A stretch of DNA of 64,000 nucleotides from IMG/VR virus record IMGVR_UViG_3300040971_000013; one strand, 5' to 3'. Under the pieces are notes generated by a model, which ran no database searches, was not told the origin of the DNA, and saw only the letters and a program-made list of their open reading frames with translations. A program made the translations under genes and the position numbers. How positions within the stretch are numbered: position 1 is the stretch's first letter; each line of letters begins with the position of its first letter. Below are positions 3,736-50,347 of this stretch, one piece after another. Source of the stretch: an uncultured virus (IMG/VR IMGVR_UViG_3300040971_000013). Its lineage: Duplodnaviria; Heunggongvirae; Uroviricota; Caudoviricetes.

Positions 3736-3750
3736 TAACATGGAGGACGA

Positions 3751-5361: not shown

Positions 5362-5375
5362 TCTGGAGGATACTA

Positions 5376-29687: not shown

Positions 29688-29752
29688 TTGACAGATCTCC
29701 AAGGTTTAGTTATTCTAATCTTAATTGATCGGAAACAACAACCTTGGAGATC
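29688..29752 (+). promoter_or_regulatory. Early promoter whose spacer is complementary to the downstream RBS
   Basis: GATCTCCAAGGTT(29694)/AACCTTGGAGATC(29740). Confidence 0.8.
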
Positions 29753-29755
29753 AAA

Positions 29756-29899
29756 ATGAAAAAGAATTCTTATAAAACCGAAAATGAAATCGGTAAACTC
29801 ATTGCCCAGTCGATAGGAACGGTTCTTGCAGCAGGATCCGTTCTATTTTCAATGTGGTTTATAGTTTGTGTACTAGCATCTTTCAATAACCCGTTTTAA
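29756..29899 (+). CDS. Small single-TM peptide (47 aa)
   Basis: GGAG RBS; hydrophobic C-terminal half. Confidence 0.55.
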   Translation: MKKNSYKTENEIGKLIAQSIGTVLAAGSVLFSMWFIVCVLASFNNPF

Positions 29900-29913
29900 C
29901 AATCGAGGATCTT

Positions 29914-31704
29914 ATGGGAACAAAAATTACTCTTACACCAGAAGCAATTGAACGTTTGCTTGTCGCAGATCCAGAGACTGCATTAGAAATCAAGCAAGGT
30001 ATTGCTATAGAATTTTCAAAGCGGTATCTTAAAGATTTGCTTGACTATGAACTAAAGCAAAAAATCAATGAGATCTGTAACAAGACTGCAGAAGATTTCA
30101 GAGATGAATTTATGATTAAGAACACCAATGGCAGAGGGTATTTTCTTGAAGATTCTTTCCGAAAACAGATGGAAGCTCAGATGAGAGTTCATTTTCAAGA
30201 AGATGTTCAGCGACTCTGTTCTGAGTTCTATAATCAGACCATTGTCAAGCTGAATGAAAAAATCAAAAACGCATTGGTAGATCTTGATACTATAGACAAT
30301 AATATTATAAACAAGATTGCTGATATTGCTGCTGATAAAGCACATCAGAAACTTAAAAACCTTTTAACAGCCAATCTTTAAGGAGATCTCCATGTATTCA
30401 CGCAGACTAACCAACGACATTCGAGACTATACCAGAACCAATTGCTATGCGCATCTGGATTCTGAACGAGCGAAAAATCCTCTACAGATTGAACTCAACG
30501 AAAAAATTGATATTCTTGTAGAACGGTTCTTGAAACTCGTCTATGAGCATTCTATGCCAGAAGAAGATTTCAATGTTATTATGAAATATAAGAACCAGTC
30601 TGAAGCTTTTCGAGTATGGTTACGAAAATGTACAGACGATAATGGCCGTGTTTATTATGAATATTCTACCTGGGGTGAATGTATTAAATTGATTTCTATA
30701 CGTCTTCCTCGGTTCGTGTATTATGATTCTGCTGAAAAAATTATCAATATGACATATAAATCGTTTGACGAAAAGTTTATTGCTGATATCTATGAACTCG
30801 CTTATATCCTGAAATGCGAGGAAGAGAAAGCGAAAGCCTCTATCAAAACTATTCTACAGCGATTTAGTACTACTGGAAAACTTGTAGAAGCATATCCTGA
30901 AATGGAAAAGTTTATTCCAGCACAATTCAAAACAAAAGAAGAGCGCAATGATTCAAAGTCTCCAGCTGAACGTCTAAATCTTGATGTTGATCTTACTACG
31001 CTGTTGAACTGATATGTATAATCTAACCGAGAATTGTGTGGTTTGTGGATCACCTAAAGTAAAGATCTTTCAGACAGAATATGGAATATCTATTCTATGT
31101 GAACGCTGTCATACAATTCTCGGTTATGATTGGATGATTCAGCTGCGAAACAAACTGCAACAGCTGCAAGAATACAAACGACGAGAACAAGAGATGCTGA
31201 AAAGATCTTTTATTGAACATCAAAAGAAACAATCTCTACAGCGTAGAATTCCAGATTCTATTGCACTAGACCGAAGAAAGAATGAACGAAGAGCTCCAGT
31301 CTATGAACTTCCAAAATGAGCGACAGATGAATCACTCTAAAATATATACAAAGCATCTCGACAAATCATATGAAATAACTCGGACTATGAAATACAGTCC
31401 GTGGAGATATCTCCGAGAAAACTTTATTCTAACAGACCATTTTATAGAACGCTGCAATGAACGCACTATATTTCCTGGACAGATAGTTCTTACTATCGAA
31501 ACTGGAAAGAAGTACTGGACATTTAAAGGACCAGAAGAAAATCTTGTAACGAAATACATACCAAAAAATCTAATGATCATTACTAAACATTGTCAAGACA
31601 GATATAATCCACTAGAAGAGATTGTCATATTGATGTCCGCATATAGGTTCAAGAATTCTGCTAAACCATACTACGAATCTGAATCATTTGTTTTTGAAGA
31701 ATGA
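29914..31704 (+). CDS. Run of four hypothetical early genes (29914-30381, 30392-31012, 31014-31319, ~31327-31704)
   Basis: Tightly packed ORFs; no recognisable family. Confidence 0.55.
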
Positions 31705-31770
31705 GTTGACAAACATATCTTGAGTAGTTATTCTATTCATATCAACTGAAACAAACCATGGAGTTTTGGA

Positions 31771-32205
31771 ATGGCTGATATTTTTAGATTCGAAGTTTTT
31801 GATAAGAGTGTTGGTCGTCATCGTGGAATATATAGCTTTGACTATCTTTGGCGATTAGAAGAGCATGAGCATTCAACTGGAAGACCTGGACCAGTTTCTG
31901 ATAAGGGTCTGAATAGAAAATGGAATCCTTTCAAGAGAAAGAATTACGTTGATGATTATGATCTATACTTTGGATTTGATACTATCAATAAAATGACTAG
32001 ATGGTTCTCAAATCAAGATGAACTTGAGATGATCTTTGGTCTTCAAGAAAGAGAAGGATACTTGAGAGGCTGTTTTTGCATCTATGAAGATATTGAGAAA
32101 TTCTTTTCTTCTAGGTATCAAGCAGTATTCATCAAACCAAATTATGAACCGAAAAGAATCTATACTTTTGAAGAATATAATACTTTTATAAAAAACTGGA
32201 GGTAG
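31771..32205 (+). CDS. Conserved phage protein, possibly ADP-ribosyltransferase-like
   Basis: IFRFE...G.Y...RPGP..D...FGF......WF pattern; own promoter at 31706. Confidence 0.35.
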   Translation: MADIFRFEVFDKSVGRHRGIYSFDYLWRLEEHEHSTGRPGPVSDKGLNRKWNPFKRKNYVDDYDLYFGFDTINKMTRWFSNQDELEMIFGLQEREGYLRGCFCIYEDIEKFFSSRYQAVFIKPNYEPKRIYTFEEYNTFIKNWR

Positions 32206-32207
32206 AA

Positions 32208-33365
32208 ATGCCTGTTGTAGAATTCCTTGCTAGATTTTCGGATAAAATGGAAGGCCTTGCAAAACTTGAAGAACTTTATGGAATCAAAGCCCGTGTCTAT
32301 GACAATTTCTTTCTCTTGAACTATTCTCAGATCGATTCTCCAAAAATGGATCCGATTGTTGCTGAATGTCGAGGAATCATTCTTGACTGGGATCTACATG
32401 TTCTACGTAGACCGTTTGATAGATTCTTTAACTACGGAGAAGCAGGAACCGATAAGTCATTTGATTTCAACGGATCTATCTGTTATGAAAAAGTTGATGG
32501 ATCTATTGTTCCTGTTTGGTATAATGGATTTGATGGTGAATGGGCAGCAGGAACTCGTGGAACTGCTTTTGCTGAAACAGAATGTGCGTCTGGCAGAGTG
32601 TTTTCTGATCTCATCACAGATACACTTGGATTCACTCCACATTATTTGTTGGCTAGTGCTGAGAAAATGCTGCAAGTTTCTTTAAACATGTATACGTTCA
32701 TCTTTGAATTGTGTACACCAGAAAACAGAGTAGTTACAAGATATCCAGAGTCTTTTATGGCTCTACTTGCTATTAGAAACAATGTGTCTGGAAGATATAA
32801 GTCTCAAGATTCTATTGCATTCTTTCATAACTTGTTTCGGCATATTCAGATAACTGCTAGCATTCCGGCTTCTATTCGTTTACCAAAGACATATGATATC
32901 TATGATATTGATTCAGCCAGATTTTCATTGAAGGATCTTGATGCTCTTGATGAAGGATATGTATTCTATAATCCGAAGACTCAAGATCGTGTAAAAGTGA
33001 AGAACCCATCTTATGTTGCTATTCATCATATTCGAGATAACGGCAATATGAATCCAAGAAGGATCTGTGATCTTGTCTTTCTGAATGAGACTGATGAATA
33101 TCTTCAGTACTTTCCAGAAGATACAAAATTCTTTTCTCCTTGGATCAATGCTTACAACGAATTCCATCGGACAGCTCTTGAGATCTATGAAAAGAATAAA
33201 CATATAGAATCTCAGAAGGAATTTGCTCTACAAGTAAAAGACCTTCCATATTCTGGTTTATTGTTTCAAATGAGACAAGGAAAAAGTTTTTCAGAGAGCA
33301 TAAATCGGTTGCATTCCGATAAAAAAGTAGATATACTAAATTCATTCAAAGGAAATGGAGAATAA
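32208..33365 (+). CDS. rnlA: RNA ligase 1 (T4 RnlA-like)
   Basis: ECRGII, FDRFFNYGE, EKVDGS, FELCTPENRVV, DEGYV, KVKNPSY. Confidence 0.9.
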   Translation: MPVVEFLARFSDKMEGLAKLEELYGIKARVYDNFFLLNYSQIDSPKMDPIVAECRGIILDWDLHVLRRPFDRFFNYGEAGTDKSFDFNGSICYEKVDGSIVPVWYNGFDGEWAAGTRGTAFAETECASGRVFSDLITDTLGFTPHYLLASAEKMLQVSLNMYTFIFELCTPENRVVTRYPESFMALLAIRNNVSGRYKSQDSIAFFHNLFRHIQITASIPASIRLPKTYDIYDIDSARFSLKDLDALDEGYVFYNPKTQDRVKVKNPSYVAIHHIRDNGNMNPRRICDLVFLNETDEYLQYFPEDTKFFSPWINAYNEFHRTALEIYEKNKHIESQKEFALQVKDLPYSGLLFQMRQGKSFSESINRLHSDKKVDILNSFKGNGE

Positions 33366-33798
33366 ATGAATAAAGAAATTTTAGAACTTGTAGAAGAATT
33401 GAAAAAGGTATTCAATGAGCAGAACAAAAGAATTCAGGATCTCGAGCAGATAGTGGTTCATCAGCAAGGGCAGTTGGATTTCTTGGAACGTAAAACCCAC
33501 AAGGATTCGGTACATTAGAATGAAAATCCAGATCTCTCCGTCTGGAGAACTTGAGATCTTTCGGTCTCACGGTTATAAAACTCAGAAATGCATCTATACT
33601 GAAGCAAAATCTTGTGGAGACAGATGCCCTCATTTTGGAGAACCGAGATATTTATATGATCATGGAGACAAACTGTGTTTTATAGAATTATGTCAAGGCC
33701 GGCTACTAAAAATAGAATTAAGTGATTTCCAAGATCTTAGAACTAAACCAGAATCAGAATATGATTATAACATTGTACTCCCAATAGAGGAATAGAAC

Positions 33799-34800
33799 AT
33801 GCAAGTAAACAAGATCCCCACCGGCTATCTCTGTGTCAACGAATATTCTAAAGGACCGTTGGAATTTCTTTCAATCGGAGACTATGGAAAGTCAAAGAAT
33901 ATTAAAGCAGACTTCCTTGGTTATTCTCGAGATCTCAATGGAGTTCCAAACGGTATCATTGCTCCTCTCCAAGAGAAATGGGTGATCACTCTGTCTACTC
34001 AGTACGGATGTTCTATGAAATGCAAATTCTGCGACTGTCCGTCTATTCAATTCAAGGGAAATGCTACTGTTGATGATCTGAAGAATCAACTTATAGATGC
34101 TATCAATTTGTTTCCTGAAGTAAAGTATACAGACCGGCTAAATATCCACTTTGCAAGATGTGGGGAACCGGTTCCTAACTTTCTCAACGTTTTCAATTTT
34201 TGCAACTGGCTTGCTGATAAGAGAGCGTTTCAGTCTCGGACTAATCTAAGAGTTGAAACGATTCATCCAGTATTTACTACAATGATTCCAAAGCATAGTT
34301 TTTGTTCTGATGTTATTCGAGACTGGGTTCATGTATATAAGAACGGAAAGTTTAATGGTCAAGCCGGCTTGCAACTGTCTATCAATAGTACAAGCAATGC
34401 ACAGCGAGATGAAATGTTTTCTGGGATGTCAAAGTCCCTTGAAGAGATCTCAAAAATCTGTGATGAACTAGAAGATCCACTCGGTCGTAAGTATTGCTTG
34501 AACTTTGCATATTCTGATCAGTTTGAAATTGATGCTCGAAAGTTGAGAAATTTGTTTGATCCTCAAAAGTTCATGTGTAAGATTACTCCAATTCATAACA
34601 ACACTGCATGTCAGGAGAATTCATATCAGACTACTACTGGGTATGAATCTTATAAGCCGTATAGTAAAGTAGAAACTGAACTGAAGGCAGAAGGATTTGA
34701 TGTCCTTGTATTTGTTCCGTCTATGGATGAAGAAGATGGTCTTGTAACATGCGGTAATCTAATTCTTTCTGGAAGGGAATTAAAAATTGGAAAACTTTAG
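33799..34800 (+). CDS. RlmN/Cfr-like radical SAM protein
   Basis: STQYGCSMKCKFC, GEP, LQLSINS, C-terminal CGNL. Confidence 0.8.
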   Translation: MQVNKIPTGYLCVNEYSKGPLEFLSIGDYGKSKNIKADFLGYSRDLNGVPNGIIAPLQEKWVITLSTQYGCSMKCKFCDCPSIQFKGNATVDDLKNQLIDAINLFPEVKYTDRLNIHFARCGEPVPNFLNVFNFCNWLADKRAFQSRTNLRVETIHPVFTTMIPKHSFCSDVIRDWVHVYKNGKFNGQAGLQLSINSTSNAQRDEMFSGMSKSLEEISKICDELEDPLGRKYCLNFAYSDQFEIDARKLRNLFDPQKFMCKITPIHNNTACQENSYQTTTGYESYKPYSKVETELKAEGFDVLVFVPSMDEEDGLVTCGNLILSGRELKIGKL

Positions 34801-34876
34801 TATTTCTTGTTGACAGCCCAATAAGTATAGGTTATTCTAAACTCAATTGAACGGAACAACAACCACGGAGTTTAAA

Positions 34877-35825
34877 ATGAAAAAGTATTCGTTGCTCAAC
34901 AAAAAGACTCAGAAGCTCGTTGAATATACTACCTCTCCAAACACGGGGGAATTCTGTGTAGATGTAGAATTCACTCTATGTGAAAACGGAGAGCAGGTTT
35001 GGTTAGTTGATTCATATGAAATGGCAAAGAACGCTCACCGGGCTCCAACACCATGGTATAATGCAAGATATGAAACTCCGAACTATGATCTTGATATGAA
35101 TGACTATGATGTGGTAGCGGTCCATATGTTTGTTGAAAAAGTTTGACCGGAGAATACCAAAGTGAAATCTTGGTACTATAAAGGCAATAAAGATCTGGCT
35201 AAGGAAGCAATCGATCTTGCTATCGTTCGTGCATCTATTGGTGCAACTATACAGAACGGCACTGTCGTGAATGGAGAATATGCCGTCATTGATGAATGTA
35301 CTGTTCGATTTGCTCCTTATCATGATGAAACATGCACCTATTATGGAGATTATTAGAAATGAAGTACATTGTATATAAGAAATATGAAGATACGACAATA
35401 GAAACACTTTTCATTTTTCCAGAAACCGAAAATCATTCTGATGTTTTTGCACAAGTAAAAACATATGCTGGGACAATCATTTCAGCTGGGTTTGTGTACA
35501 AAGATGGTAATGGTGAATTGTACTGTACTGGTAAATCTTATACATGTGATGTCAGTTCTCGTGGTGAGGTGGATACTAAACTTTTAAATTCTATGTTGGA
35601 GAGAATGTAGTGAAAATCAAATCAATCGTTTCCCAATCCCGTAGAGATTTCACAGCCATTTATGAATGTGAACATTGTGGAGCAACTGATAAGTCTTATG
35701 GATATGACGATTCATATTTCCATGAGAACGTCATCCCGAAAATGGAATGCAAACAGTGTCACAAGAAAGCATCTGACAGTTATAGACCGTTAGCAACAAA
35801 ATATCCAGATGGAATTACCGTCTAA
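34877..35825 (+). CDS. Four small early hypothetical genes (last has CxxC pairs)
   Basis: Downstream of repeat promoter 34810; packed ORFs. Confidence 0.5.
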
Positions 35826-35866
35826 CTTTTCAATGAAATCTAATAGCAAAAGGAGTTCTATGGAAC

Positions 35867-36911: not shown

Positions 36912-36928
36912 AAATATGAAAAAAGTAG

Positions 36929-37013
36929 TTGACAGCCTTTCTTATCGGTTATATCTATTAATTGAAATTGCTTATAAACTATAAACAATCAATCTATAAC
37001 CGATAAGGAGGCT
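36929..37013 (+). promoter_or_regulatory. Early promoter with anti-RBS spacer
   Basis: AGCCTTTCTTATCGGTTATA / TATAACCGATAAGGAGGCT. Confidence 0.75.
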
Positions 37014-37276
37014 CTCAAATGAAACAGGAATTTATCGTTGAAAAGGATCCCAAGCCGATGCTCGCTTCCAAACCTTGGAGGGTTCGTTGTACTGCTGGAG
37101 ATGGACCGTTCAAGCCGCATATTGCTGATGTCTTTTCCAAGAGAAAGAATGCAGTCAAATATGCAAAAGTTTATAATGATTTTATCCAACAAAATTACGG
37201 ACTACCTATTGACAAATAGAAATTTCATTGTTATCTGTTAATTGAATCACCAACAATCAACCAAGGAGTTTTTAAA

Positions 37277-37744
37277 ATGAAGATCGACTTTACAATCCTA
37301 TTGGAAGAACTGGTTAAGACTCGTGGATCCGCAAAGACTAAGAACACTGAATTCGTTGACGCAGTACTCGCTCAGCATTATATCAAAAAGGAACGAGAAG
37401 AACGAAAAGTTGAACGCGAAAACCGTTCTGATCTGAAGTCTGATCGGGACAAGCGTAATGAAGAAATCCTGAAGCAGAAACTTGAAGCGAAAATCAATGG
37501 AAAACCTGAGAAGATCATTGATCGGATCTACAATCTTGCAAAGGATTACAAAACCTTTAACATTGGTGAAGCAGCAGAAGCAGTCGGAGCTTCCTGGGGA
37601 ACTTCCTACCATGCAATTAAACAGCTTGCAAAGGAAGGGAAATTGAAGGAAGCTGCTAAACAGGAGACTGGAAAGCGTGGAAAGAAGTCTGTCATCTGGT
37701 CGATTGCAAATGGTGAAAAAGAAAAAGGAAAAACCTCTAACTAA
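37277..37744 (+). CDS. Winged-helix DNA-binding protein (paralog 1)
   Basis: FNIGEAAEAVGASWGTSYHAIKQL...GKRGKKSVIW. Confidence 0.65.
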   Translation: MKIDFTILLEELVKTRGSAKTKNTEFVDAVLAQHYIKKEREERKVERENRSDLKSDRDKRNEEILKQKLEAKINGKPEKIIDRIYNLAKDYKTFNIGEAAEAVGASWGTSYHAIKQLAKEGKLKEAAKQETGKRGKKSVIWSIANGEKEKGKTSN

Positions 37745-38218
37745 GTCGGTAATAAAATGACCCTAGCAAGGATCTGAAGAGAGACGTAAAACATCTCTCT
37801 TTTTTTACGTCTAGTGGTTGACATTCTATAAGCTATTAGTTATTCTAAACTCAATTGAACAACAAACCACGGAGTTTAAAATGAACACGACAATTTCTAT
37901 CAACTCAATCGAGATTGCAAACAGAGCACGAAACCTCTACAAACACAACGGACTATACTTCAGGCTGTTTGCTAAAGGGGTTACTCCGAATGGATGTTGG
38001 TTGATCGGTCCTTATATGCAGCAGTTGATTGATATTGACGCAGCAACTGGCAAAGATGTATATGGTCCAAGCAGATTAGATTTTGTTGGAATGGTTGAGT
38101 CCAATAGAGAATATGAAAAATATTTTGACTGAGAGTGTAAAATTAGTTGACATATACTGATCGGATAGTTATTCTAAACTCAATTGAACGGAACAATAAC
38201 AAAACCAAGGAGTTTCAA

Positions 38219-38735: not shown

Positions 38736-40025
38736 ATGAATCTCAGTGAAAGGGTTAAAGTCTTTAAGGATGAGAAGAATAGTCTTCTCAAAGATCTTAT
38801 TGATTATTTTAAGAACAATAATGAAACTCTAGAAGATCGTTGGAAACTGTTTGAGGAATCACGCGAATTGTTTCCCAGATATTCATGGGTAATGGATATT
38901 CGTGAAATCGAAGTAAATGATGGCAATTATTATGATGATTTTGGATACGATCGTCACCAAACTGTAGATCTGGTTGATTTGGTATATAGAATTGAAGACT
39001 ATCCAGCGAAATATTCAAAATTTAATGTGGAACAAGTGAAGAAAGAGATTTTAGCATCCGGTTATGGATCATTTATCTTTGATTGGTAAGGAGATATCAT
39101 GGGAATCTGTCCGTATTGTGAAAAAGTAATTCCAAGACAGGAATCTGTTACTAACCATGTTCTTGATTGCGCTAGAGAGTTGATCGAGAAATATGAAAAA
39201 GCTCTTCATAACATTGTCAAATATTGTCCATATGAAAATACTGATCCAAAGCTTCTATCTGAACAAAAGCGTATACTGAATGAAATCTTAGTATGTCCAA
39301 GGTGTGCTAAGAAAGCTGCAAATCCATACGCATTTTCTAATAGATGTGATAAACATTATTCAGAAGAACGAAAAATAGATCTCCGGATTAAATCTCATAG
39401 AGAATATCTTGCTGAGTATGGACCGAAAGAAATTGCTAAAGAGGCACTAAAGAAATGAACGTTATTTGGAGGATACTTGCAAGAAAGAATTATAGCATCT
39501 GCGCTTCGGCATAAGGAAACAGGACAAATATGGACTCTACCAGCTCCAGCTCGTCATCACAATATTTTTAGAATACTCCCAGAATCAATGTCTTCTTTAG
39601 AAATTACTTCAAAAACTGAACAAGGATTTGAGACTAATCTTAGACCGTTTGTTGATCGAAAAGAAGCAAAAATAATTGCTCGGAATGCTGATCAGCTTTT
39701 AGATCGAGCATCTAAATTAAATATTCTTTTTTCTGAAGATGTTTGGTGAAATTCTATTGACAGTATTAGTCTGATTGATTATTCTAAACTCAATTGAACA
39801 ACAATAAATCCCTGGAGGATCAAGATGGAAACCAACAGAATTGAAATTGATACTTGCTTTTCCTATGAAATTGATTATCAGAATTTACATAGAACCGGAA
39901 CATGGACTCTGATTACGATTTTCAAGAATGAGCAACTTTATGGCGGTACCTCTCATAAGGGTCGTCTGTCTGAGGAACAATGTTTGAAGAATGTTAAGAA
40001 GTTTATTGCTATCTACAACTCTTAA
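38736..40025 (+). CDS. Four small early hypothetical genes
   Basis: RBS-preceded ORFs; 39477 has an RHH...QGF...FVDRKEA...LFSED phage motif. Confidence 0.5.
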
Positions 40026-40034
40026 GGAATTACA

Positions 40035-40439
40035 ATGAATAAAACTCTCTATATTGTTCGTGGCCTACCTGGATCTGGTAAGTCGACTCTTGCAAAAAAT
40101 CTTGTCAGTGAACCACTATTGCATCATCATGAAGCTGATCAGTATTATGTTGGTTCTGATGGAGTGTATCGTTTTGATCCAGATAAGATCGGAGCAGCTC
40201 ATTCATACTGTCGGAGATGTGTTGAAAACGATATGGAAAACTATATCCCAAGAATCGCTGTTTCCAATACGTTTACTACTCTGAAAGAGATTCAGCCGTA
40301 TTTGGAACTATGCAAGCTTCATGGATATACTCCAATGGTTATCCATTGTGAAAATACTTTTGGAAATATTCATGATGTTCCAGAAGAAACTCTTGCTAAG
40401 ATGAAGAATCGTTGGCAGAAATATGATATCGCAGCATAA
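40035..40439 (+). CDS. Polynucleotide-kinase-like P-loop protein (AAA_33)
   Basis: RGLPGSGKST, EADQY, VSNTFT, HDVP. Confidence 0.8.
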   Translation: MNKTLYIVRGLPGSGKSTLAKNLVSEPLLHHHEADQYYVGSDGVYRFDPDKIGAAHSYCRRCVENDMENYIPRIAVSNTFTTLKEIQPYLELCKLHGYTPMVIHCENTFGNIHDVPEETLAKMKNRWQKYDIAA

Positions 40440-41096
40440 AGTCATGTCTGCTGAAGAATTCCTCGATGATATTCTTGATGATCTCAAAATGTTATCAAAA
40501 CATGATCCAGACAGAGACGGGTGTATGGTTCCCGAATATCATGGAAGTTGGATACGTGCATCGTATATAGACGATATCATAGAAAAGATAGAAAAATTTC
40601 AAAAACGGAGAAACAAATGACTGTTGTAAAAATTGACGACTGTATTGAAGATGAAGTAATAGATCTTATGGACTGTGTTACAGGATGGGTCTATAAGTTT
40701 GTCTTTGAGGGTGGAAATAGTTCTATATGGTTGTGTCTGGATGTTGAAGGTAAAACCCATTTTGTTGATTGCATCTATCTTTCTGTTGAAACATCAGAAT
40801 CTATACTAGCAGCATACGATCCAATCATTAAGATCATTCCAGTTGAAAATATTACTATCACTGTAGAGTAAACAATGAATTCCAATCCCATAAGATGCAC
40901 ATACTGTGGAAGATTTATCGCATATAAAGATCTTGAAGAAGAAACTGCGTCTTTCACAATGACTCTTCCTGAATCTGCTTATTCAGTTGAGACATGGATT
41001 GGAACATGTAAATCTTGCAACCAAAAATTGATTGACAATCCATCCTGCTTTAGTTATTCTAAACTCAATTGAACAACAAATCCCTGGAGGATCAAG

Positions 41097-41338
41097 ATGG
41101 AACTTATTAAAACAAATTGCTTCGACAAAGAAACCGCTGACTTCAAAGTAGTTGTCTATGGGAAGCTGAAAAATCTTTTTGTTGTTGGTGTGTATATACG
41201 TTTGATATTGATTGCTTCTATTGGCATAAGCTGTTTGTCTATGAAAATGGTAAAAAGCGTAGACCAAACCGAGTAGAAGTTTGTCAAATTGAAGCAGAAA
41301 TCCTTTCATACTATTCCGAGGTAGACTACGATGTATAA
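41097..41338 (+). pseudogene. Probable frameshifted early gene
   Basis: Extra dinucleotide in GTGTGTATATAC (41188-41199); the corrected frame ends at TAA 41338, overlapping the next ATG. Confidence 0.5.
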
Positions 41339-41566
41339 TATGAGAAGCAAAAATGGATTCTTGATTGCAAAATTTTCAGACTATATTGGTAAAGTCATCA
41401 TCATGAAGTCTGCTGGTCATTTCGAGCAAAAGACATTTGTGTCTGGGAACTCTCACAAGTGTTATGTTCTTGATGTTGATGGAACCTTTTTCCTTGGAAC
41501 AGAAGGGAGAGAAGACTATATGAAAATATACCTTTGGAAAGGCTGTTATCTATATGAGGCTGATTG

Positions 41567-42163
41567 ATGGCAACTAAATTTACATCTGATTTACACATTG
41601 GACATTATAACTGCGCTGTTAAATATAGACCGTTCTCTTCATTAGATGATATGCATACTGATATTGTAGAACGATGGAATCAAAATATCACAATAGACGA
41701 TGATGTATTTGTTCTTGGTGATATTTTCATGAACGAATATAAGACGTTAGAAAAGGCAAATGATTTTCTCAATCAGTTGAACTTCAAATCTTTTAATGTT
41801 GTTCCAGGCAACCATGATAAGACAAACTTCTTGAGAGAGATTTCCATCTATAGAGAAAAGAATTCTCTAAGTCCTTTTGTAATTCAACCGTATCTATTAG
41901 AAAAAAGATTTCCAGTTGAAGAAAAGAATGCTAAGTTCTATCCTCTTGTATGTTCACATTATCCTCTAGCTTCATGGTCAACTGTTAGTAAGGGTATTGG
42001 GCATGTTCATGGACACTGTCATATGAAATACTCACCAGCTGGAAGAATCCTTGATGTTGGTTGGGATGGATTCTATACAGAACGAGAAAAAGGAATTTGG
42101 TCTGTAGATGAGATCAAAGCATATATGAAAGAACAAGAAATTTATAGCGTAGATTACCATTAG
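41567..42163 (+). CDS. Metallophosphoesterase
   Basis: SDLHIGH, LGD, GNHD, SHYP, HGHCH. Confidence 0.88.
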   Translation: MATKFTSDLHIGHYNCAVKYRPFSSLDDMHTDIVERWNQNITIDDDVFVLGDIFMNEYKTLEKANDFLNQLNFKSFNVVPGNHDKTNFLREISIYREKNSLSPFVIQPYLLEKRFPVEEKNAKFYPLVCSHYPLASWSTVSKGIGHVHGHCHMKYSPAGRILDVGWDGFYTEREKGIWSVDEIKAYMKEQEIYSVDYH

Positions 42164-43812: not shown

Positions 43813-43836
43813 CCTTTAACCCGTTTGGAGTATCTA

Positions 43837-44541: not shown

Positions 44542-44560
44542 TCTAAAAGAAAATTGATAA

Positions 44561-44605
44561 AAGAGGGTCTTTCCTATTGACAGTGGAGACCCTTTTGAAT
44601 ATTCT
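44561..44605 (+). terminator. Terminator hairpin enclosing the -35 of an early promoter
   Basis: AGGGTCT...TTGACA...AGACCCTTTT; TATTCT at 44600. Confidence 0.65.
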
Positions 44606-44627
44606 GAATCCAACAAGGAGCAATTAT

Positions 44628-45200
44628 ATGAGATACTGCTACATTCATGGATTCAACTCTGGACCGAAAACATCTACATTAGATGCCTTAAGGTCTGCTC
44701 TTGGTGTAGAGGTCTTTGGATTGTCTTACAAATCTCATTTCACGTATTATCAGAACATTGAAAAGCTCTCCAGACAAATCAATGATCTTGGAGAACCATG
44801 TATCTTGATCGGAACGTCTCTCGGTGGGTTTTATGCCAGTCGACTTCTGATCAACTATACTGTTGCTGGTGCAGTCATGTTCAATCCTTGCAACTGTCCA
44901 GCTGAGGAACTTCAACAATTCATCGGACTAAATACCAACTTCTCAACTGGAGAACAGTACGAGCTGACTGATTATATTGTAGATACATATTCTATGGCTA
45001 CAGAATTAGATCTTCGTAATGTCATGAAACCGAAGATGGTTTATCTCGCCAACAATGATGAGCTGATAAATAATTCTGAATCAGAATCGTACTGGAATGG
45101 ATATGCTCAGATAGAATGGTTTGAAGGAAATCATCGAGTCACAGATTTCAGTCCGTTCAAAGATGAAATTCTTTCAATGGAGCATCTTATATATCTATGA
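44628..45200 (+). CDS. YqiA/UPF0227-like alpha/beta esterase
   Basis: YIHGFNS, GTSLGG, NP, DE, EGNH. Confidence 0.85.
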   Translation: MRYCYIHGFNSGPKTSTLDALRSALGVEVFGLSYKSHFTYYQNIEKLSRQINDLGEPCILIGTSLGGFYASRLLINYTVAGAVMFNPCNCPAEELQQFIGLNTNFSTGEQYELTDYIVDTYSMATELDLRNVMKPKMVYLANNDELINNSESESYWNGYAQIEWFEGNHRVTDFSPFKDEILSMEHLIYL

Positions 45201-45736
45201 TAACTTTTTCAGAATTTTTAAATGAGTCTTATGTAAATTTGTTCAAGCCAGATGAGAAGAAAGTATATGCTGATGAAGTGTTTGCTCTACTACAAAATTC
45301 ATATAAGAAAGTTGGTGGTCTGAAAGGATCTGGTTTCAATTCTCCAGATGATATGGTTGCGCGTATTCCGTTCTGGAAGCTTGTACGCAAAAATGATAAG
45401 ATAGTAGCGGCGGTATTCTATAAGGATTCTGGTGGTAGAAAGTTGGTCGCCCTTGGAACTGATGGGTCTCCAGAAGGTAAAGCTGCTATAGTTGATTTGA
45501 TGAAAGCTGAAATTACTAGACAGAGATCTTATTCTGAAGTCTCGGAACCAGTTGTTTCGTTCATCAAGAAATATGTATTGTCTAATCTAGAACAATATAT
45601 GATCCCAGCTGATCAAGTTTCAGAGATTCTTGGGAAGGAGATTCGTATTACTGGAAAGTATACTTATACCCGTGAGATCGGTGGGAATCATCATGAAAAG
45701 CTAATGTTTGGAAAGCCCGGCGTTAAATTCTATTGA
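45197..45736 (+). CDS. Putative internal head protein
   Basis: MITFSEFLNE|S N-terminus. Confidence 0.5.
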   Translation: MITFSEFLNESYVNLFKPDEKKVYADEVFALLQNSYKKVGGLKGSGFNSPDDMVARIPFWKLVRKNDKIVAAVFYKDSGGRKLVALGTDGSPEGKAAIVDLMKAEITRQRSYSEVSEPVVSFIKKYVLSNLEQYMIPADQVSEILGKEIRITGKYTYTREIGGNHHEKLMFGKPGVKFY

Positions 45737-45798
45737 CAGTTTAGATTCTCCTTGTTATTTGTTATTCTCAATGGCAACAATAACAAGGAGATTCTAAA
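45733..45798 (+). promoter_or_regulatory. Ligase promoter with anti-RBS spacer
   Basis: TTTAGATTCTCCTTGTTATT / AATAACAAGGAGATTCTAAA, 19/20 paired. Confidence 0.75.
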
Positions 45799-47135
45799 TG
45801 AAATCCGTCTCTCAAATCCTCGAACAACTCTCTTCTACCAATTCTTCTAACGACAAGTTGAATATTCTCTCAGCAAATTTTCAAAATGAAAAACTGCAAC
45901 GATTCTTTTTCTATGCTTTGAATCCTCATTATGTTTATGGACTCAAAAAGATTCCTGGATATGTAAAGCGATCTGAAACAGTAACAGAAGCAATGGTATT
46001 TCACTTTCTCGATGCTCTCAGAGGACGTGAAATTACTGGTAATAAGGCAATAGAAGAATTGAAAGGGATCCTTGAGAATACATCTAATGACTTAGAATGC
46101 CAGATTCTCAAAATTATCAAGAAGGATCCTGATGTTGGTGTTTCTTCCGGGCTGATTGAAAGGGTTTGGCCGTTACTTTTACCTATCGGAGTAAAACTCT
46201 GCAAGGCACAACCGTATTCTCCTAAAGCAATTTCCAAAATCTCTTTTCCTGCTATCTCTGACCTGAAAGCTGATGGAGCAAGGGTCAATGCTTTTATCTA
46301 TAAAGATCGTGTTGAACTGTTCTCCTCTGGTAGTCTGAAACTTCATGGAGTCAAAATCCTCGAAGATGATATTCTATTGAGTGGAGCAACTGAACACGTT
46401 CTTGACGGCGAGTGTGTTGTTCTTGAAGAAGATATGAAAACCGTTATGCCTCGGAAGAAAGGAAACGGAATCATCACCAAAGCAATCAAGGGAACTATCT
46501 CTCCCGAAGAAGCAAACCGAATTCGTTTTCATGTTTGGGATCTCATTGGATTCAGATCTTATAATGACTCAACCAAATATCCTACTGCTGGATATAGAGC
46601 TCGTCGAGAATCTCTCATTCACAGGATCACTCCATGTTCTCGAGTTGAAATGATTGAGTCCAAGATTGTCAACAATATTACAGAAGCAATTGCTCATTTT
46701 AAAGAGATGCTTGCGCTTGGACAAGAAGGAACCATCCTGAAGAATCTTGATTTCATCTGGGATGGTAAGAGAGTTCAAGATTGTGTCAAGTTCAAACTGA
46801 TCATTGAGAATACTCTGAAATGTATTGATGTCAAGATCTCTATTGAGACCAAATACGAAGGGCAAATTGGAGCTCTGATATGTGAATCTGCTGATAAGAA
46901 GGTTGTTGTTTCTGTTGGATCTGGATTGTCTGATGATGATCGTATTAAATATAGCATGGAATCGCCGATCGGAAAGTTCTTCGAAGTACGTTCTAATGGT
47001 TTGATCTCAGATGAATCTGGCTGGTCATTGTATTTGCCGCGCTTGGTAGAAGAACGCTTTGACAAGTCAGAAGCAGATGATTTTGAGACCATTGAAGCTT
47101 TGTCCAATGGATCACAAATGCTGCTGAATGAATAG
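45798..47135 (+). CDS. gp30: ATP-dependent DNA ligase (gp30-like)
   Basis: KADGAR, LDGE, VWD, EGTILK, VKFK, GSGL, LYLPR...RFDK. Confidence 0.93.
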   Translation: MKSVSQILEQLSSTNSSNDKLNILSANFQNEKLQRFFFYALNPHYVYGLKKIPGYVKRSETVTEAMVFHFLDALRGREITGNKAIEELKGILENTSNDLECQILKIIKKDPDVGVSSGLIERVWPLLLPIGVKLCKAQPYSPKAISKISFPAISDLKADGARVNAFIYKDRVELFSSGSLKLHGVKILEDDILLSGATEHVLDGECVVLEEDMKTVMPRKKGNGIITKAIKGTISPEEANRIRFHVWDLIGFRSYNDSTKYPTAGYRARRESLIHRITPCSRVEMIESKIVNNITEAIAHFKEMLALGQEGTILKNLDFIWDGKRVQDCVKFKLIIENTLKCIDVKISIETKYEGQIGALICESADKKVVVSVGSGLSDDDRIKYSMESPIGKFFEVRSNGLISDESGWSLYLPRLVEERFDKSEADDFETIEALSNGSQMLLNE

Positions 47136-47156
47136 TAAATTACCAAATTCTCTTTG

Positions 47157-47164
47157 TATAAATA
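47157..47164 (+). promoter_or_regulatory. T4-type late promoter
   Basis: Intergenic TATAAATA upstream of thyX. Confidence 0.6.
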
Positions 47165-47191
47165 AATCCCCGCTTAAAAATATGGAGGCAT

Positions 47192-47962
47192 ATGAAAGTT
47201 ACTTTAATAGGTATTTCCATCCCAAACATTCAACAGACTTATCAGGAGGATTGTGATCCAGACAAAGTTGTTTATACAGCATTAGCACAATGCTACAAAG
47301 ATTCTTTCAATCCGTTATCAGACAAATATCCTTCTGTAGAAGAGATGAAAAAGGTCATTAATCATGTAATAAAATCCGGTCACCATTCAGTAGCAGAACA
47401 TGTCTATTTTAGTTTTCTAATTGAAGATGTTAGTAGAGCATTGACGCATCAGTTGGTACGTCATAGAATTGCGAGTTATTCACAGAAATCTCAACGATAT
47501 ACTGATGGATCATTCTTTTCTTATGTAGTTCCACCAACAATTGCAAAGAATGATGAAGCTCGAAAAGAGTATGTAGATCATATGGAATCTACTCAGAAGC
47601 TCTATGCTAAACTTGTAGATTCTGGTGTTCCTCATGAAGATGCTCGGTTTATTCTACCAAACGCTTGTGCGTCTAATATAGTAATGACAATGAATATTCG
47701 TTCATTGGGTGAGTTCTTTGCTAAGAGACTTTGTAAGAGGGCTCAATGGGAAATTCGTGATCTGGCGTCTGTAATGGCTGTTAAACTACAAGATGTTGCT
47801 CCAACGTTTTTCAAAGATAATAAACTTGGATATGCTGCATGTATTCAGAACGGTTTTTGTAAAGAAGGAAAGTCTTGTGGTATGATGCCGAAACTAGACG
47901 ATCTAAAGAATGCTTATAAAATTCTACAGGTACAAAAAGATGAAGTATATAACAGGCGATGA
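47192..47962 (+). CDS. thyX: Flavin-dependent thymidylate synthase
   Basis: GHHSVAEH, SRALTHQLVRHRIASYSQKSQRY, AQWEIR. Confidence 0.95.
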   Translation: MKVTLIGISIPNIQQTYQEDCDPDKVVYTALAQCYKDSFNPLSDKYPSVEEMKKVINHVIKSGHHSVAEHVYFSFLIEDVSRALTHQLVRHRIASYSQKSQRYTDGSFFSYVVPPTIAKNDEARKEYVDHMESTQKLYAKLVDSGVPHEDARFILPNACASNIVMTMNIRSLGEFFAKRLCKRAQWEIRDLASVMAVKLQDVAPTFFKDNKLGYAACIQNGFCKEGKSCGMMPKLDDLKNAYKILQVQKDEVYNRR

Positions 47963-48184
47963 AGCAACAGACTATGTTTCTAAGTTTGAAGTTGAACTGA
48001 AAGCTCTATTAGAAAAGTATAAAGCTGAAGCCAATATAGAAGATTATTGGACTGGATATTCTGAATGTGGCAGAGATCTTCATATTGTATTTGAACTAAA
48101 AGATTGTGGAAAAGGATTAGAATTCGGTTCTTGGATAGATAAAGATACCAAAGGTAAAATTGAATAAGGAGATATATCGAAAGA

Positions 48185-49990
48185 ATGGCTAAAAAGTTAA
48201 AACCAATGGTCCGGTTGAATAAGGATCAGATCGAGCAGAAACAATTATTTATTGATAGCTACAAAGGAGCAAAGAACGCTGCTATTGGATCTTCAGTAGA
48301 TGCTAACTCAAATGTGGTATCTAAAACAGTTGCAACTCTTGGTGCTGAATTATTTAAGGATTTTCATATTCAGATTAATAGAAAAACGGTCTATGATAAA
48401 ATTGCTGAGATGTTCGATCAAGAAACAGCTGACAAATACGTAGAATGGTTAGAAGATCATCGGATCTACAGACACGATGAGACTGCTCAGACTCCTGGGA
48501 CTCCCTATTGTGTTGCTATCAATATGTATCCCTTTCTTGAACATGGTATGACTAGACTTGGCGGAGAATCGAAAGCACCTAAACATTTGGAATCATATTG
48601 TGGATCCTTTATCAATTTGGTCTTTGCTATCAGCTCTCAGTTTGCTGGTGCTGTTGCTACTGTAGAATTCCTATTGTACTTTCATTATTTTGCTAAGAAG
48701 GATTATGGTGCTGATTATCTCCATACAGAAACCGAGAGAGTCAAATCAAAACTTCAACATGTAGTATATTCTTTGAACCAACCTGCTGCAGCAAGGGGCT
48801 GGCAATCTGTATTTTGGAATGTTTCTGTATTTGATAGATACTTCTATGAATCTATGTTTGGTAACTTTATGTTCCCAGACTTCACAAAAGTAGATTATGA
48901 TGAATTTAATGAACTGCAGAAGTTCTTTCTTGAATGGTTGTTGGATGAAAGAACCAAGTCTTTACTGACCTTTCCAGTATTAACAGAAGCTTCTTTGAAT
49001 ACAGAAGATGATGCAAAGGATTTAGAATGGGCTGATTTTATTGCAGAAATACGCGCAAAGGGCTTATCAATGTTTTCTTTTAATGATAAAACCGCATCAA
49101 GTTTGTCCAGTTGCTGCAGGTTGGCCTCAAAGCTAGATGATACTATAAACGATTTCTCGTTCTCACTTGGAGCAGGTGGTGTTAGTACAGGAAGTACTAG
49201 TGTAATTACAATCAATATAAACAATGTACTACAGAAAGGATATGATCTAGAAGAAACAATCAAAGAAGTACAGAAGTTCCAGGTTGCAAATAGAAAACTC
49301 GTAGAAGAATATGTTGCTGACGGACTACTCCCTGCTTATACTACTGGATTCATTAGTCTAGATAAACAGTTTGTTACTCTGGGTGTTCTTGGACTGAATG
49401 AAGCTGCTGAATATCTGGGTTATACTGTTGGCAATAATGACACATATAAGGATTGGGCAGCTGGGATTTTCAAATTGTTTTCTGACATGAACAAGATTGC
49501 AAAAGATAAGTACGGTATCAAATTCAATACTGAATGTGTTCCTGGAGAATCTCTCGGAGTTAAGTTTGCAAACTGGGATAAAGAATCCGGTCTAAAAGTA
49601 AATCGTGACTGTTATAATTCATATATGTATCTACCAGAATCAACTGATACCTCTATTCCAGACAAGTTTCAGTTGCACGGCGGCCAGATTGCAGAAATGC
49701 AAGATGGTGGTTCTGCTCTACATTGTAATCTATCTCAGCTACCAGACAAAGAAGTCTTTAGATGGCTTCGTAAACTTGCTGCTGTCTATGGAACAAAATA
49801 TTGGACAACCAACGTTTTGACATCAGTCTGTGAAGAATGCGGCCATATTGATATGAGAACAGTTGATCTTTGTCAAGCATGCGGATCAACTAATATCAAC
49901 TGGGCTACACGGGTTATTGGATATCTCCGCAAAATTGCCAACTATTCTGAAGGTAGACAGAAAGAAGCTGCTATCAGATATTACCACTAA
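48185..49990 (+). CDS. nrdD: Anaerobic (class III) ribonucleotide reductase
   Basis: PYCV, SSCCRL, PGESLG, CEEC/CQAC Zn site, TRVIGYL glycyl-radical motif. Confidence 0.95.
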   Translation: MAKKLKPMVRLNKDQIEQKQLFIDSYKGAKNAAIGSSVDANSNVVSKTVATLGAELFKDFHIQINRKTVYDKIAEMFDQETADKYVEWLEDHRIYRHDETAQTPGTPYCVAINMYPFLEHGMTRLGGESKAPKHLESYCGSFINLVFAISSQFAGAVATVEFLLYFHYFAKKDYGADYLHTETERVKSKLQHVVYSLNQPAAARGWQSVFWNVSVFDRYFYESMFGNFMFPDFTKVDYDEFNELQKFFLEWLLDERTKSLLTFPVLTEASLNTEDDAKDLEWADFIAEIRAKGLSMFSFNDKTASSLSSCCRLASKLDDTINDFSFSLGAGGVSTGSTSVITININNVLQKGYDLEETIKEVQKFQVANRKLVEEYVADGLLPAYTTGFISLDKQFVTLGVLGLNEAAEYLGYTVGNNDTYKDWAAGIFKLFSDMNKIAKDKYGIKFNTECVPGESLGVKFANWDKESGLKVNRDCYNSYMYLPESTDTSIPDKFQLHGGQIAEMQDGGSALHCNLSQLPDKEVFRWLRKLAAVYGTKYWTTNVLTSVCEECGHIDMRTVDLCQACGSTNINWATRVIGYLRKIANYSEGRQKEAAIRYYH

Positions 49991-50016
49991 AAATAAAAGT
50001 TATTCATCTAAAGCTA

Positions 50017-50082
50017 TTGACAAACAGACTCCGAATGGTTATTCTAATCTTAATTGAACGGAAACATATAACCATTCGGAGT
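50017..50082 (+). promoter_or_regulatory. Early promoter with anti-RBS spacer
   Basis: ACTCCGAATGGTTAT(50028)/ATAACCATTCGGAGT(50068), perfect 15 bp. Confidence 0.8.
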
Positions 50083-50086
50083 TATC

Positions 50087-50347
50087 ATGCTTTACCACCC
50101 CACTTACACCGCTGCAATTTCTACCGCTCTTGATTCCGCTGAAGAACTTGGTTATTCCTATGATGAAAATGAATATTTTGATACAGTAGCTGTCGGAACT
50201 TCTCGTCCAAAGGTTGGAGAGACTTCGAGATTCTCCCTTAGACTTCGCCATAATAGCATGAAGGCATCTGATGCTGATGTATATCTTCATGTGCAGGTCT
50301 ATGGAATGGAATCTGGAGTATATGAACTTAATTTTTATATTCTGTAG
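50087..50347 (+). CDS. Hypothetical early protein
   Basis: GGAG RBS; C-terminal YELNFYI. Confidence 0.6.
   Translation: MLYHPTYTAAISTALDSAEELGYSYDENEYFDTVAVGTSRPKVGETSRFSLRLRHNSMKASDADVYLHVQVYGMESGVYELNFYIL

Follow-up and report, generated by a model that had tools for sequence, protein, structure and literature searches.

A promoter spacer complementary to the downstream ribosome-binding site at four loci of an uncultured T4-like phage, and its possible role in translational insulation

At four gene starts in the phage DNA analysed here, an upstream segment in the -35/-10 region of a sigma70-like promoter or promoter-like site is complementary to the gene's own Shine-Dalgarno (SD) sequence. 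We explain the four predicted hairpins, with moderate confidence, as translational insulation of these genes from read-through RNA. The -35/-10 spacer, free of sequence constraint, may have acquired an arm that pairs with the ribosome site. RNA polymerase coming from upstream genes would copy both arms, and the resulting 13-20 bp RNA hairpin would bury the GGAG up to the AUG. With the GGAG buried, 30S subunits would be unable to load and the cistron would be silent on read-through RNA. Transcripts from the gene's own promoter would begin about 9-17 nt past the 5' arm, have an open, A-rich leader and be translated, so that the gene product would be tied to the activity window of its early promoter. 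According to the available part of one account of T4 (PMC2988021), part of the middle RNA comes from early transcripts that are extended, and Rho polarity acts on RNA that is not translated; such polarity may follow on an untranslated cistron here as well.

Predicted hairpins at four gene starts

The window, that is, the whole stretch of DNA analysed (64,000 nt), comes from a distant, uncultured T4-like phage. All of the inverted repeats described in the earlier note were found in their places, and the geometry it had claimed, with the 5' arm before the predicted +1 and the 3' arm over the SD, holds at all four loci. Their parts are as follows.

Locus 1 promoter, + strand: TTGACA at 29688-29693, a 17-nt spacer and TATTCT at 29711-29716; 10/12 consensus matches.
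Locus 1 5' arm, 29694-29706, + strand: GATCTCCAAGGTT, wholly inside the spacer, ~17 nt before the predicted +1.
Locus 1 3' arm, 29740-29752, + strand: AACCTTGGAGATC, over the SD; pairs 13/13 with the 5' arm.
Locus 1 gene, 29756-29899, + strand: AUG at 29756; a 47-aa hydrophobic ORFan.
Locus 2 promoter-like site, 36929-36957, + strand: TTGACA-N17-TATCTA, with no T at -7 and an A/T-rich tract upstream.
Locus 2 5' arm, 36929-36953, + strand: perfect core at 36941-36953; the arm reaches the TTGA of the -35.
Locus 2 3' arm, 36995-37018, + strand: core at 36995-37007; covers AAGGAGG up to the base before the AUG at 37019.
Locus 2 gene, 37019-37219, + strand: a 66-aa ORFan.
Locus 3 promoter region, option a, + strand: TTGACA at 45733-45738, N17 and TATTTG at 45756-45761.
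Locus 3 promoter region, option b, + strand: GTTTAGA at 45739-45745, N17 and TATTCT at 45763-45768 (TTTAGA-N17-TATTCT).
Locus 3 5' arm, 45740-45759, + strand: 19/20 paired.
Locus 3 3' arm, 45779-45798, + strand: covers AAGGAG and the A of the AUG.
Locus 3 gene, 45798-47135, + strand: ATP-dependent DNA ligase (phrog_114, E 7.6e-102), only ~35% identical to any deposited phage.
Locus 4 promoter, 50017-50045, + strand: TTGACA, a 17-nt spacer and TATTCT; 10/12 consensus matches.
Locus 4 5' arm, 50028-50042, + strand: ACTCCGAATGGTTAT, in the spacer and the first 3 nt of the -10.
Locus 4 3' arm, 50068-50082, + strand: ATAACCATTCGGAGT, over the SD; 15/15 with the 5' arm.
Locus 4 gene, 50087-50347, + strand: an 86-aa ORFan downstream of nrdD.

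The core at locus 2 is extended by six pairs across a 1-nt bulge (to 36934) and by four more (to 36929). The arms are 13-20 nt long, contain CTCC and are 40-60 nt away from the SD, on its upstream side. In every case the 3' end of the 5' arm falls about 9-17 nt before the position that the -10 box predicts for the +1, and the 3' arm covers the GGAG and ends 0-4 nt short of the AUG. The upstream ORFs end between 4 nt inside the -35 hexamer and 26 nt before it; at locus 3 the upstream stop TGA (45734-45736) falls within TTGACA. Sigma70 promoters had been claimed at all four loci. Judged by consensus, an internal promoter whose transcripts would lack the 5' strand is present at loci 1 and 4, but loci 2 and 3 have no consensus -10 and neither was listed by the promoter scanner. 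If the promoters at these two loci are dead, the hairpin would simply silence the gene. It also speaks against insulation that there is no obvious rationale for confining a DNA ligase to its own early promoter.

The complementarity exceeds chance. For the 74 SD+ATG starts called on the + strand of the window, the TIR (-25 to +3) was scanned against the 150 nt upstream of the start. The longest perfect complement was 15, 13, 13 and 13 nt at the four loci and at most 8 nt at the other 70 starts; among permuted TIR/upstream pairs (n = 2185) the longest was 11 nt, with 0.27 cases of 10 nt or more expected. These four starts stand out in the comparison with shuffled controls that the earlier note had proposed. 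At the four loci RNAduplex energies ranged from -22.7 to -27.6 kcal/mol, against -18.5 kcal/mol at the next best start and a permuted-pair minimum of -22.2 kcal/mol (n = 1076; 73 starts, one having been dropped for N).

The predicted hairpins have loops of 19-41 nt and minimum free energies of -26.9 to -30.5 kcal/mol (z -5.8 to -7.0), with locus 2 at -30.5 kcal/mol and locus 3 at -27.9 kcal/mol (z -6.98). On transcripts from upstream, fold prediction places the SD or AUG in a stable helix. Opening the TIR is predicted to cost 4.3-5.5 kcal/mol when the RNA starts at the gene's own promoter and 18.9-22.4 kcal/mol when it is read-through RNA, whereas at 14 other cassettes of the same kind the two RNAs differ by only -1.0 to +4.9 kcal/mol.

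Co-variation and turnover within a cassette family

The sigma70-like motif TTGACA-N15-19-TATTCT is present at 14 sites in the window, 13 of which are on the + strand; 0.27 would be expected. Twenty TTGACA-N17 cassettes with SD-ATG are present, of which only four carry spacer arms; in a related 141-kb contig used for comparison (G001) the arms are found in 3-4 of 27 cassettes. The genes flanking cassettes mostly lack PHROG matches. An arm complements whichever RBS variant, CCTTGGAG or CCAAGGAG, its cassette has; some cassettes share an RBS variant with armed ones and carry no arm. In three homologous, same-register cassettes 36 of 39 cells are paired, as against 26-51% in slid-register controls, and 3 of 13 pairs have changed on both sides; with only three sequences this test of co-variation is weak, 23 of 500 shuffles reaching the observed value. 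The suggestion that the differing arms reflect co-variation rather than copying is nevertheless supported, both by these paired changes in paralogous cassettes and by the way in which arms track their own RBS variant.

Comparison with G001 gives a mixed picture of the compensatory changes that the earlier note had suggested checking in relatives. The locus 1 orthologue has one T-A to A-T compensatory pair and a predicted fold that is still -23.3 kcal/mol, but its stem also contains an A.C mismatch; the 4 substitutions in 26 arm positions are about the divergence of the surrounding 84%-identical block. G001 has a 14-bp stem at locus 3, where the window has 19/20 pairs. Neither the 3' arm of locus 2 nor its genes are present in G001 or in the contigs of runs from three other studies, where an orphan 5' arm remains. 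A fifth instance, with a different arm of 11 bp, is found in G001 at 100826-100898. In evolutionary terms, the stems are labile in this close relative. The idea that translation depends on the promoter of origin draws support from the predicted energetics, and it loses some from the lability of the stems, the two poor -10 boxes and the presence of arms in a minority of cassettes. Taken as a whole, the interpretation in the earlier note is partly supported.

Quasipalindrome (template-switch) mutation is well known in T4, and it is conceivable, though unlikely, that the arms are a tolerated by-product of it, a chance RBS-spacer complementarity having been perfected in the one part of the cassette that is free of constraint, the spacer. 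The arms are as long and perfect as would be expected of templated conversion, they are confined to a minority of cassettes, they diverge at the rate of their flanks, and they are gained or lost between close relatives. The leader and hexamers of the cassettes are conserved, and the spacer is therefore where change would be tolerated. However, a predicted stem of -23 to -30 kcal/mol over the SD must affect read-through RNA, and so the arms cannot be neutral. In all five instances (the four loci and that in G001) the 3' arm lies on the SD and no 5' arm lies downstream of the predicted +1, where own-promoter RNA would be silenced too. The changes on both sides of the stem preserve pairing, and the layout recurs in T4 itself, at denV, regB and nrdC.8.

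Other possible roles and wider implications

The cassettes resemble published promoter-early stem-loop (PeSL) elements, and the hairpins might act as attenuators or terminators of transcription arriving from upstream, or as a structure at which modules recombine and shuffle, with masking of the SD incidental. In the available PeSL text, Arbiol et al. report that a PeSL stem-loop lowers lacZ expression like rrnB T1 (PMC2839356). The window has repeated early promoter/leader units between ORFans, and its alignment blocks with G001 end inside cassettes (+-10 nt) in 6 of 44 cases against 1.19 expected (binomial p 0.0012); one joint, 36979 to 37858, was seen in three runs. We still regard this role as quite unlikely. 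No terminator-like site was called at the four loci or immediately before them and no U-tract follows any 3' arm, and the loops of 19-41 nt differ from those of the compact G-run/C-run PeSL stems. Shuffling junctions occur at armless cassettes too, and arms are therefore not needed for recombination; arm sequences differ between loci, so that they are not a common protein site.

Stems of 19-20 bp, as at loci 2 and 3, approach the length of an RNase III substrate. The hairpins could then be RNA processing or stability elements, whether as a site cut by an RNase III-type enzyme, as a hairpin protecting the 3' end of the upstream message or as a shield of the GGAG from a RegB-like nuclease; protection of GGAG from RegB by RNA structure is described in the text available to us (PMC3014915). 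This seems very unlikely, given that the stems at loci 1 and 4 and in G001 are only 11-16 bp and that a stabiliser need not put its 3' arm exactly on the SD every time. Cleavage of the stem would silence read-through RNA too, and this proposal therefore overlaps with insulation.

Translational coupling, in which only ribosomes completing the gene upstream could open the hairpin and read-through expression would be kept in step with the neighbour, is highly improbable. The reach of a terminating ribosome is set by its footprint, and the upstream stop at locus 3, which precedes the 5' arm by 4 nt, is within that reach, but the 5' arm starts ~15 nt (locus 1), 18 nt (locus 2; 30 nt to the perfect core) and 38 nt (locus 4) past the upstream stop, distances that put these arms beyond it. 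A DNA cruciform, the alternative raised in the earlier note, is unlikely because loops of 19-41 nt disfavour cruciform extrusion.

If translational insulation operates as predicted, post-transcriptional information is encoded in the -35/-10 spacer, which is usually regarded as sequence-free, and one ORF is translatable or silent according to the promoter that made its RNA. This would matter for annotation and for the reading of phage transcriptomes, since protein could not be predicted from RNA coverage. It would also give a simple account of strictly immediate-early genes in the dense, terminator-poor early regions of T4-like phages, a way to insulate newly shuffled gene modules from upstream transcription, and a compact design rule for synthetic operons. 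We further suggest, tentatively, that anti-SD spacer arms might serve T4-like phages in general as a fast-evolving "transcript-of-origin filter". Any cassette might gain an arm, perhaps via templated quasipalindrome mutation, and its gene would be restricted to its own early-promoter window; the untranslated cistron would invite Rho polarity, making the hairpin a conditional terminator that insulates shuffled modules from new neighbours. Such a filter would tie PeSL-type module shuffling to expression insulation.

Comparison with T4 and other known systems

In T4 an inhibitory structure at gene e cuts lysozyme synthesis 100-fold, soc, 49 and I-TevI are further cases, and promoter-inside-hairpin control is also listed for I-TevII/III, segB and Aeh1 mobE (PMC3014915). 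As in e, soc, 49 and I-TevI, the setting is T4-like, the SD and/or AUG lies, here by prediction, in a helix on long upstream transcripts, and the internal promoter's own transcripts would lack the 5' strand and so be translated. Unlike the T4 late cases, the window promoters are of the sigma70-like form TTGACA-N17-TATTCT and the 5' arm occupies the -35/-10 spacer. The timing would also be reversed, with expression tied to an early promoter and silencing of later read-through RNA. The control is predicted here, whereas T4 gene e provides an experimental precedent. The late promoter TATAAATA (gp55) is absent from all four hairpins; the window has 8 matches to it, where 5.95 would be expected, and none is at the loci. 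Of the proposal that the hairpin logic of late endonuclease genes is here applied to sigma70 promoters, the SD helix stands by prediction; the promoters are of the TTGACA-N17 type, not late ones, and the -10 boxes of loci 2 and 3 are non-consensus. At denV, regB and nrdC.8 the stems are shorter, with at most 10 perfect pairs, and the window stems (13-20 bp) are the longest and cleanest among those compared.

The PeSL passages available (PMC2839356, PMC4122927) name RB49/phi1, PST/T4 and nt-1/KVP40, and not RB43, to which the earlier note had looked. The stems described there are compact G-run/C-run hairpins inside the spacer, on a hexamer, upstream of the -35 or immediately ahead of the +1, and the role given to them is that of terminators or attenuators. 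The 2010 PeSL text never uses the words 'translation', 'ribosome' or 'spacer'. The link holds for the cassettes and their shuffling: sigma70-like early promoter and SD units, with the SD and start at the 3' end, are repeated between small genes of unknown function, the stem-loop overlaps the promoter, and indel or replacement junctions between close relatives sit in cassettes. It does not hold for the type of stem, the window hairpin spanning the -10, the +1 and the whole leader, with the SD as its 3' arm.

CT-rich anti-SD insulators have been described inside bacterial sigma54 promoters (Levy et al., bioRxiv 10.1101/086108). As far as the available text goes, these too are promoter-internal sequences that pair with a downstream SD and silence read-through RNA, as predicted here, but they are motifs of 3-5 nt that lie no more than 25 bp from the SD. 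The window arms are gene-specific, 13-20 nt long and 40-60 nt from the SD, and their phage promoters are of the -35/-10, sigma70 type. Our literature searches found no published account of a hairpin between a sigma70 promoter spacer and the SD. The design is a sigma70 variant of the T4 promoter-in-hairpin logic within PeSL-like shuffling cassettes, and the window extends it to a lineage whose ligase is ~35% identical to that of any deposited phage.

Inverted repeats between promoter spacers and ribosome-binding sites

The four inverted repeats that an earlier note had reported at early promoters of the window are all present at the positions it gave. In each, an upstream strand in the -35/-10 spacer (the 5' arm) is complementary to a downstream strand that covers the Shine-Dalgarno sequence, SD (the 3' arm).

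Predicted early promoters with a spacer complementary to their own ribosome-binding site (RBS); approximate positions of the 5'/3' arms, + strand
Locus 1, 29694/29740: 5' arm immediately 3' of the -35
Locus 2, 36941/36995: 5' arm from the -35 into the -10, 25 nt with extensions
Locus 3, 45740/45779, DNA ligase: 5' arm at 45740-45759
Locus 4, 50028/50068: 5' arm in the spacer and 3 nt of the -10

For each of the 74 + strand starts with an SD and an ATG, we took the longest perfect complement of the region from -25 to +3 around the start codon (TIR) in the 150 nt upstream. It is 15, 13, 13 and 13 nt at the four loci and at most 8 nt at the other 70 starts. The window-wide comparison with permuted controls that the note had called for sets these 13-15 nt against a maximum of 11 nt in permuted TIR/upstream pairs (n=2185). 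RNAduplex energies are -22.7 to -27.6 kcal/mol at the four loci, the next best among 73 starts (one removed for N) being -18.5 kcal/mol; the permuted-pair minimum of -22.2 kcal/mol (n=1076) comes from a null that is inflated because the cassettes, units of a TTGACA-type promoter, leader and SD-ATG, have RBS sequence in common. The weaker RNAduplex candidates, 26330 (-18.5) and 21597 (-17.9), have perfect runs of only 8 nt. The predicted RNA folds of the four regions are -26.9, -30.5, -27.9 and -27.3 kcal/mol (z -5.8 to -7.0), and no Rfam family reached its gathering score. The inverted repeats are real and far above chance, and TIR complementarity is bimodal, a discrete feature of four genes rather than the tail of a continuum.

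The sequence TTGACA-N15-19-TATTCT occurs at 14 sites where 0.27 would be expected. Thirteen of the sites lie on the coding strand, and many copies are followed by a conserved leader (TATTCTAAnCTnAATTGAAC...GGAG). With a looser pattern (TTGACA-N17-TAnnn[T/A/G], then SD-ATG and an ORF of at least 35 aa) 20 cassettes are found in the window, and the spacer/TIR complement is at least 13 nt in four of them and at most 6 nt in the other 16. The promoters of loci 1 and 4 score 10/12 in an independent promoter scanner. Those of locus 2 (TATCTA) and locus 3 (candidates TTGACA-N17-TATTTG, TTGACA-N24-TATTCT and GTTTAGA-N17-TATTCT) are absent from the scanner list, and the strength of these two of the four promoters is uncertain. 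Whichever -10 is chosen, the predicted +1 lies 9-17 nt 3' of the 5' arm end. A tandem TATAAAC TATAAAC (36976-36989) also falls within the hairpin loop at locus 2.

The source phage, its relative and co-variation of the arms

The window has a G+C content of 35.7%, a single 100-N gap (61116-61215) and nearly every gene on the + strand. PHROG matches to the sliding clamp, clamp loader, DNA polymerase pieces, UvsX, a gp41-like helicase, topoisomerase II subunits, RNA ligases, an ATP-dependent DNA ligase, thymidylate synthase, NrdD/NrdG and dUTPase identify it as a T4-type replication and nucleotide-metabolism region. Since megablast with 8 kb of the window gave no nucleotide-level match to deposited phages, and ligase identity to them does not exceed 35.8%, the source is a distant, uncultured T4-like phage. 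The metagenome runs containing it are labelled hydrocarbon, wastewater and landfill. Products of 47, 66 and 86 aa match no family in PHROGs or Pfam. The DNA polymerase matches are split over two adjacent ORFs (150 and 332 aa; 5817-7265), upstream of which no SD+ATG start was called in 3678-5800, and the polymerase gene may be split or interrupted near 5817-7265.

Cassette-pattern scans of viral and metagenome contigs recovered a sole related contig, the 141-kb viral contig G001, so that two genomes underlie the co-variation data. G001 runs collinear with the window, with 78-95% sequence identity and numerous indels. Other indels or replacements of module size against G001 and metagenome-run contigs, at 29899-30391, 31304-31699, 35148-35611 and 38738-39089, are typical of a hyperplastic region. 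The uvsX gene of the window consists of two ORFs (8191-9102 and 9188-9712), whose junction ends have weak matches to N- and C-terminal intein splicing domains, all below gathering score (Pfam Intein_splicing, E 8.7e-6 and 4.5e-4; Hom_end_hint, 3.8e-5). Between the uvsX halves G001 has a 248-aa ORF with no Pfam match (40354-41708; L015 about 354-1708), the SD of which lies within a 16-bp hairpin (-35.6 kcal/mol) whose loop includes GATAAATA, which differs from the T4 late promoter at a single base. The arrangement resembles a fractured gene that has a split intein and a free-standing insert of endonuclease type, the insert being controlled by a classic late hairpin.

Locus 4 is identical in G001 from 5 nt past the -35 through the AUG. 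Locus 3 retains a 14-bp core, the outer 6 pairs being replaced because the upstream sequence differs from TTGACA outward. At locus 1 one T-A pair has become A-T by a compensatory exchange; with two mismatches, an A.C and a terminal one, the predicted fold is still -23.3 kcal/mol. At locus 2 the 5' arm is retained and window 36993-37857 is missing, a segment that includes the 3' arm, a terminator-like hairpin and two genes (66 and 155 aa). The breakpoint falls between the leaders of two cassettes. The joint 36979->37858, with 'ATC' between, is found in G001 and in contigs from runs of three further studies, and these genomes are left with an orphan 5' arm in the promoter spacer. Because a complement of 13-19 nt cannot arise by chance, we infer that the two-arm arrangement is ancestral and the orphan arm a deletion product. 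The intrinsic-terminator-like site, AGAGAGA-N9-TCTCTCT followed by a T run (37778-37806), lies between the 155-aa gene and the 37818 promoter and was missed by the terminator scanner because its loop exceeds 8 nt. Beyond the window's span G001 has a fifth instance of the promoter/SD hairpin, TTGACA-GTACTCCTTGGTTGAGT-TATTCT...AACCAAGGAGT (11 bp, -23.1 kcal/mol). The complement is at least 11 nt in 3 of the 27 G001 cassettes, and the locus 1 orthologue has an interrupted one (7+4). At L002 and L003, remote loci that carry a ligase gene, none of 10 gene starts has a TIR complement of at least 8 nt.

The fifth instance is a cassette homologous to locus 1 and its G001 orthologue, and all three have their stems in a common register. 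In their 13-pair stem 36 of 39 cells pair, seven pairs are invariant and three have changed on both sides (T-A/A-T at position 3; AA/TT to TT/AA at positions 8-9). Slid-partner controls give 26-51% pairing and 0-1 pairs changed on both sides; shuffles reached the observed values in 23/500, with three sequences only. The AA/TT exchange follows two RBS variants, CCTTGGAG and CCAAGGAG, both of which are found in arm-less cassettes too, and locus 4 is a paralogue of the same cassette type with its stem 3 nt out of register. Because the exchange tracks the RBS variant and the locus 4 stem is out of register, the arms appear, in qualitative terms, to follow their own RBS rather than to be copies of each other. 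This agrees with the co-variation that the earlier note had proposed, with changes on both sides in 3/13 pairs. Of the compensatory changes in relatives that it had listed as a check, G001 locus 1 shows one exchange; against this stand the A.C mismatch at that locus and the 3' arm lost at locus 2.

Read-through RNA and rival readings

The ensemble energy required to unpair -18..+4 (opening energy) was computed for 18 cassettes in two RNAs, one starting at the predicted +1 and the other 150 nt upstream. At the four loci the predicted values are 4.3-5.5 kcal/mol for the own RNA vs 18.9-22.4 kcal/mol for the read-through RNA, a difference of 14.6-17.8, while in the 14 remaining cassettes the difference is -1.0 to +4.9 kcal/mol. 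One arm-less cassette (41032-41097), with a partial spacer/SD complement (ATCC-A-TCC vs GGAGGAT) and the joint-largest difference of its class (+4.9 kcal/mol, tied with 5329), may contain an incipient or decayed arm. Read-through into the four loci is plausible because upstream ORFs end close by (between 4 nt within the -35 hexamer and 26 nt ahead of it), a window scan found no terminator-like site at the loci, and such sites are not enriched in the whole window (11 vs 9.2 in shuffles).

The best-supported reading is translational insulation, in which the hairpin would silence the gene on read-through RNA and the RNA from its own promoter, without the 5' arm, would stay translatable. It is physically sound in these predictions, is modestly supported by the co-variation and applies to a fifth of the cassettes. 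This would be the hairpin logic of T4 gene e applied to a sigma70-type early promoter. The gene e hairpin has been shown experimentally to lower lysozyme synthesis 100-fold, and the same review lists soc, 49 and I-TevI for this type of control (PMC3014915). Since much of the middle RNA of T4 arises when early transcripts are extended and untranslated RNA is exposed to Rho polarity, as another review describes (PMC2988021), a masked cistron could also attenuate transcription farther downstream. At locus 3 the upstream stop codon lies 4 nt 5' of the 5' arm. Ribosomes that terminate there might therefore unfold the outer part of the stem, which may let the ligase carry a hairpin.

Among rival readings, the stems may be a neutral by-product of quasipalindrome mutation; qualitatively, the co-variation is compatible with selection and with templated conversion alike. 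Judged by its predicted stability, a stem this strong over the SD must have an effect on read-through RNA, however it arose. Other rivals would make the stems elements of RNA processing or stability, a means of translational coupling or, in the manner of a PeSL (promoter/stem-loop), an attenuator or a structure for recombination. Intrinsic terminators are unlikely, given the counts of terminator-like sites and their lack at the loci; a U-tract after the 3' arm is absent at all four loci, as is a late-promoter motif from the four hairpin loops. A common repressor operator is ruled out, the arm sequences differing at every locus, and a cruciform is unlikely given loops of 19-41 nt.

Comparison with known systems

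The relation to PeSLs that the earlier note had suggested stands for the cassette and fails for the stem. The window cassette is likewise a repeated early promoter and SD unit between ORFans, at which mosaic junctions are concentrated (6/44 block ends vs 1.19 expected, p 0.0012). Its stem geometry is unlike that of published PeSLs. In the portions of the two papers available, these are compact G-run/C-run hairpins that lie within or next to the promoter and have been read, and in part tested, as terminators (PMC2839356, PMC4122927); the words 'translation', 'ribosome' and 'spacer' are absent from the 2010 paper (PMC2839356). A conceptual parallel, from the accessible part of its description, is the CT-rich anti-SD insulator located within sigma54 promoters (bioRxiv 10.1101/086108). 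The full-text literature searched, including the T4 review PMC3014915 and the available parts of PMC2988021 and PMC1524935, yielded no account of a hairpin that masks the SD and encloses a sigma70 early promoter; older T4 papers in subscription journals may hold one. The design appears to be general yet undescribed. Among 141 annotated minus-strand starts in bases 1-77337 of T4 (NC_000866), three early promoters with a GTTTAC-type -35 have a spacer complementary to their own SD, with shorter stems.

T4 early promoters with a spacer complementary to their own SD
denV, start 65355, minus strand: 10 bp; GTTTACA then directly TCTCCTGTAG, pairing with CTACAGGAGA
regB, start 62740, minus strand: 7 perfect pairs, or 13 with two G.U (by eye from the sequence)
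nrdC.8, start 53885, minus strand: 7 pairs

At T4 mobD.2 a spacer/leader repeat of 10 bp leaves the SD uncovered. The longest perfect run in the T4 starts scanned is 10, and the stems of the window are therefore the longest among those compared.
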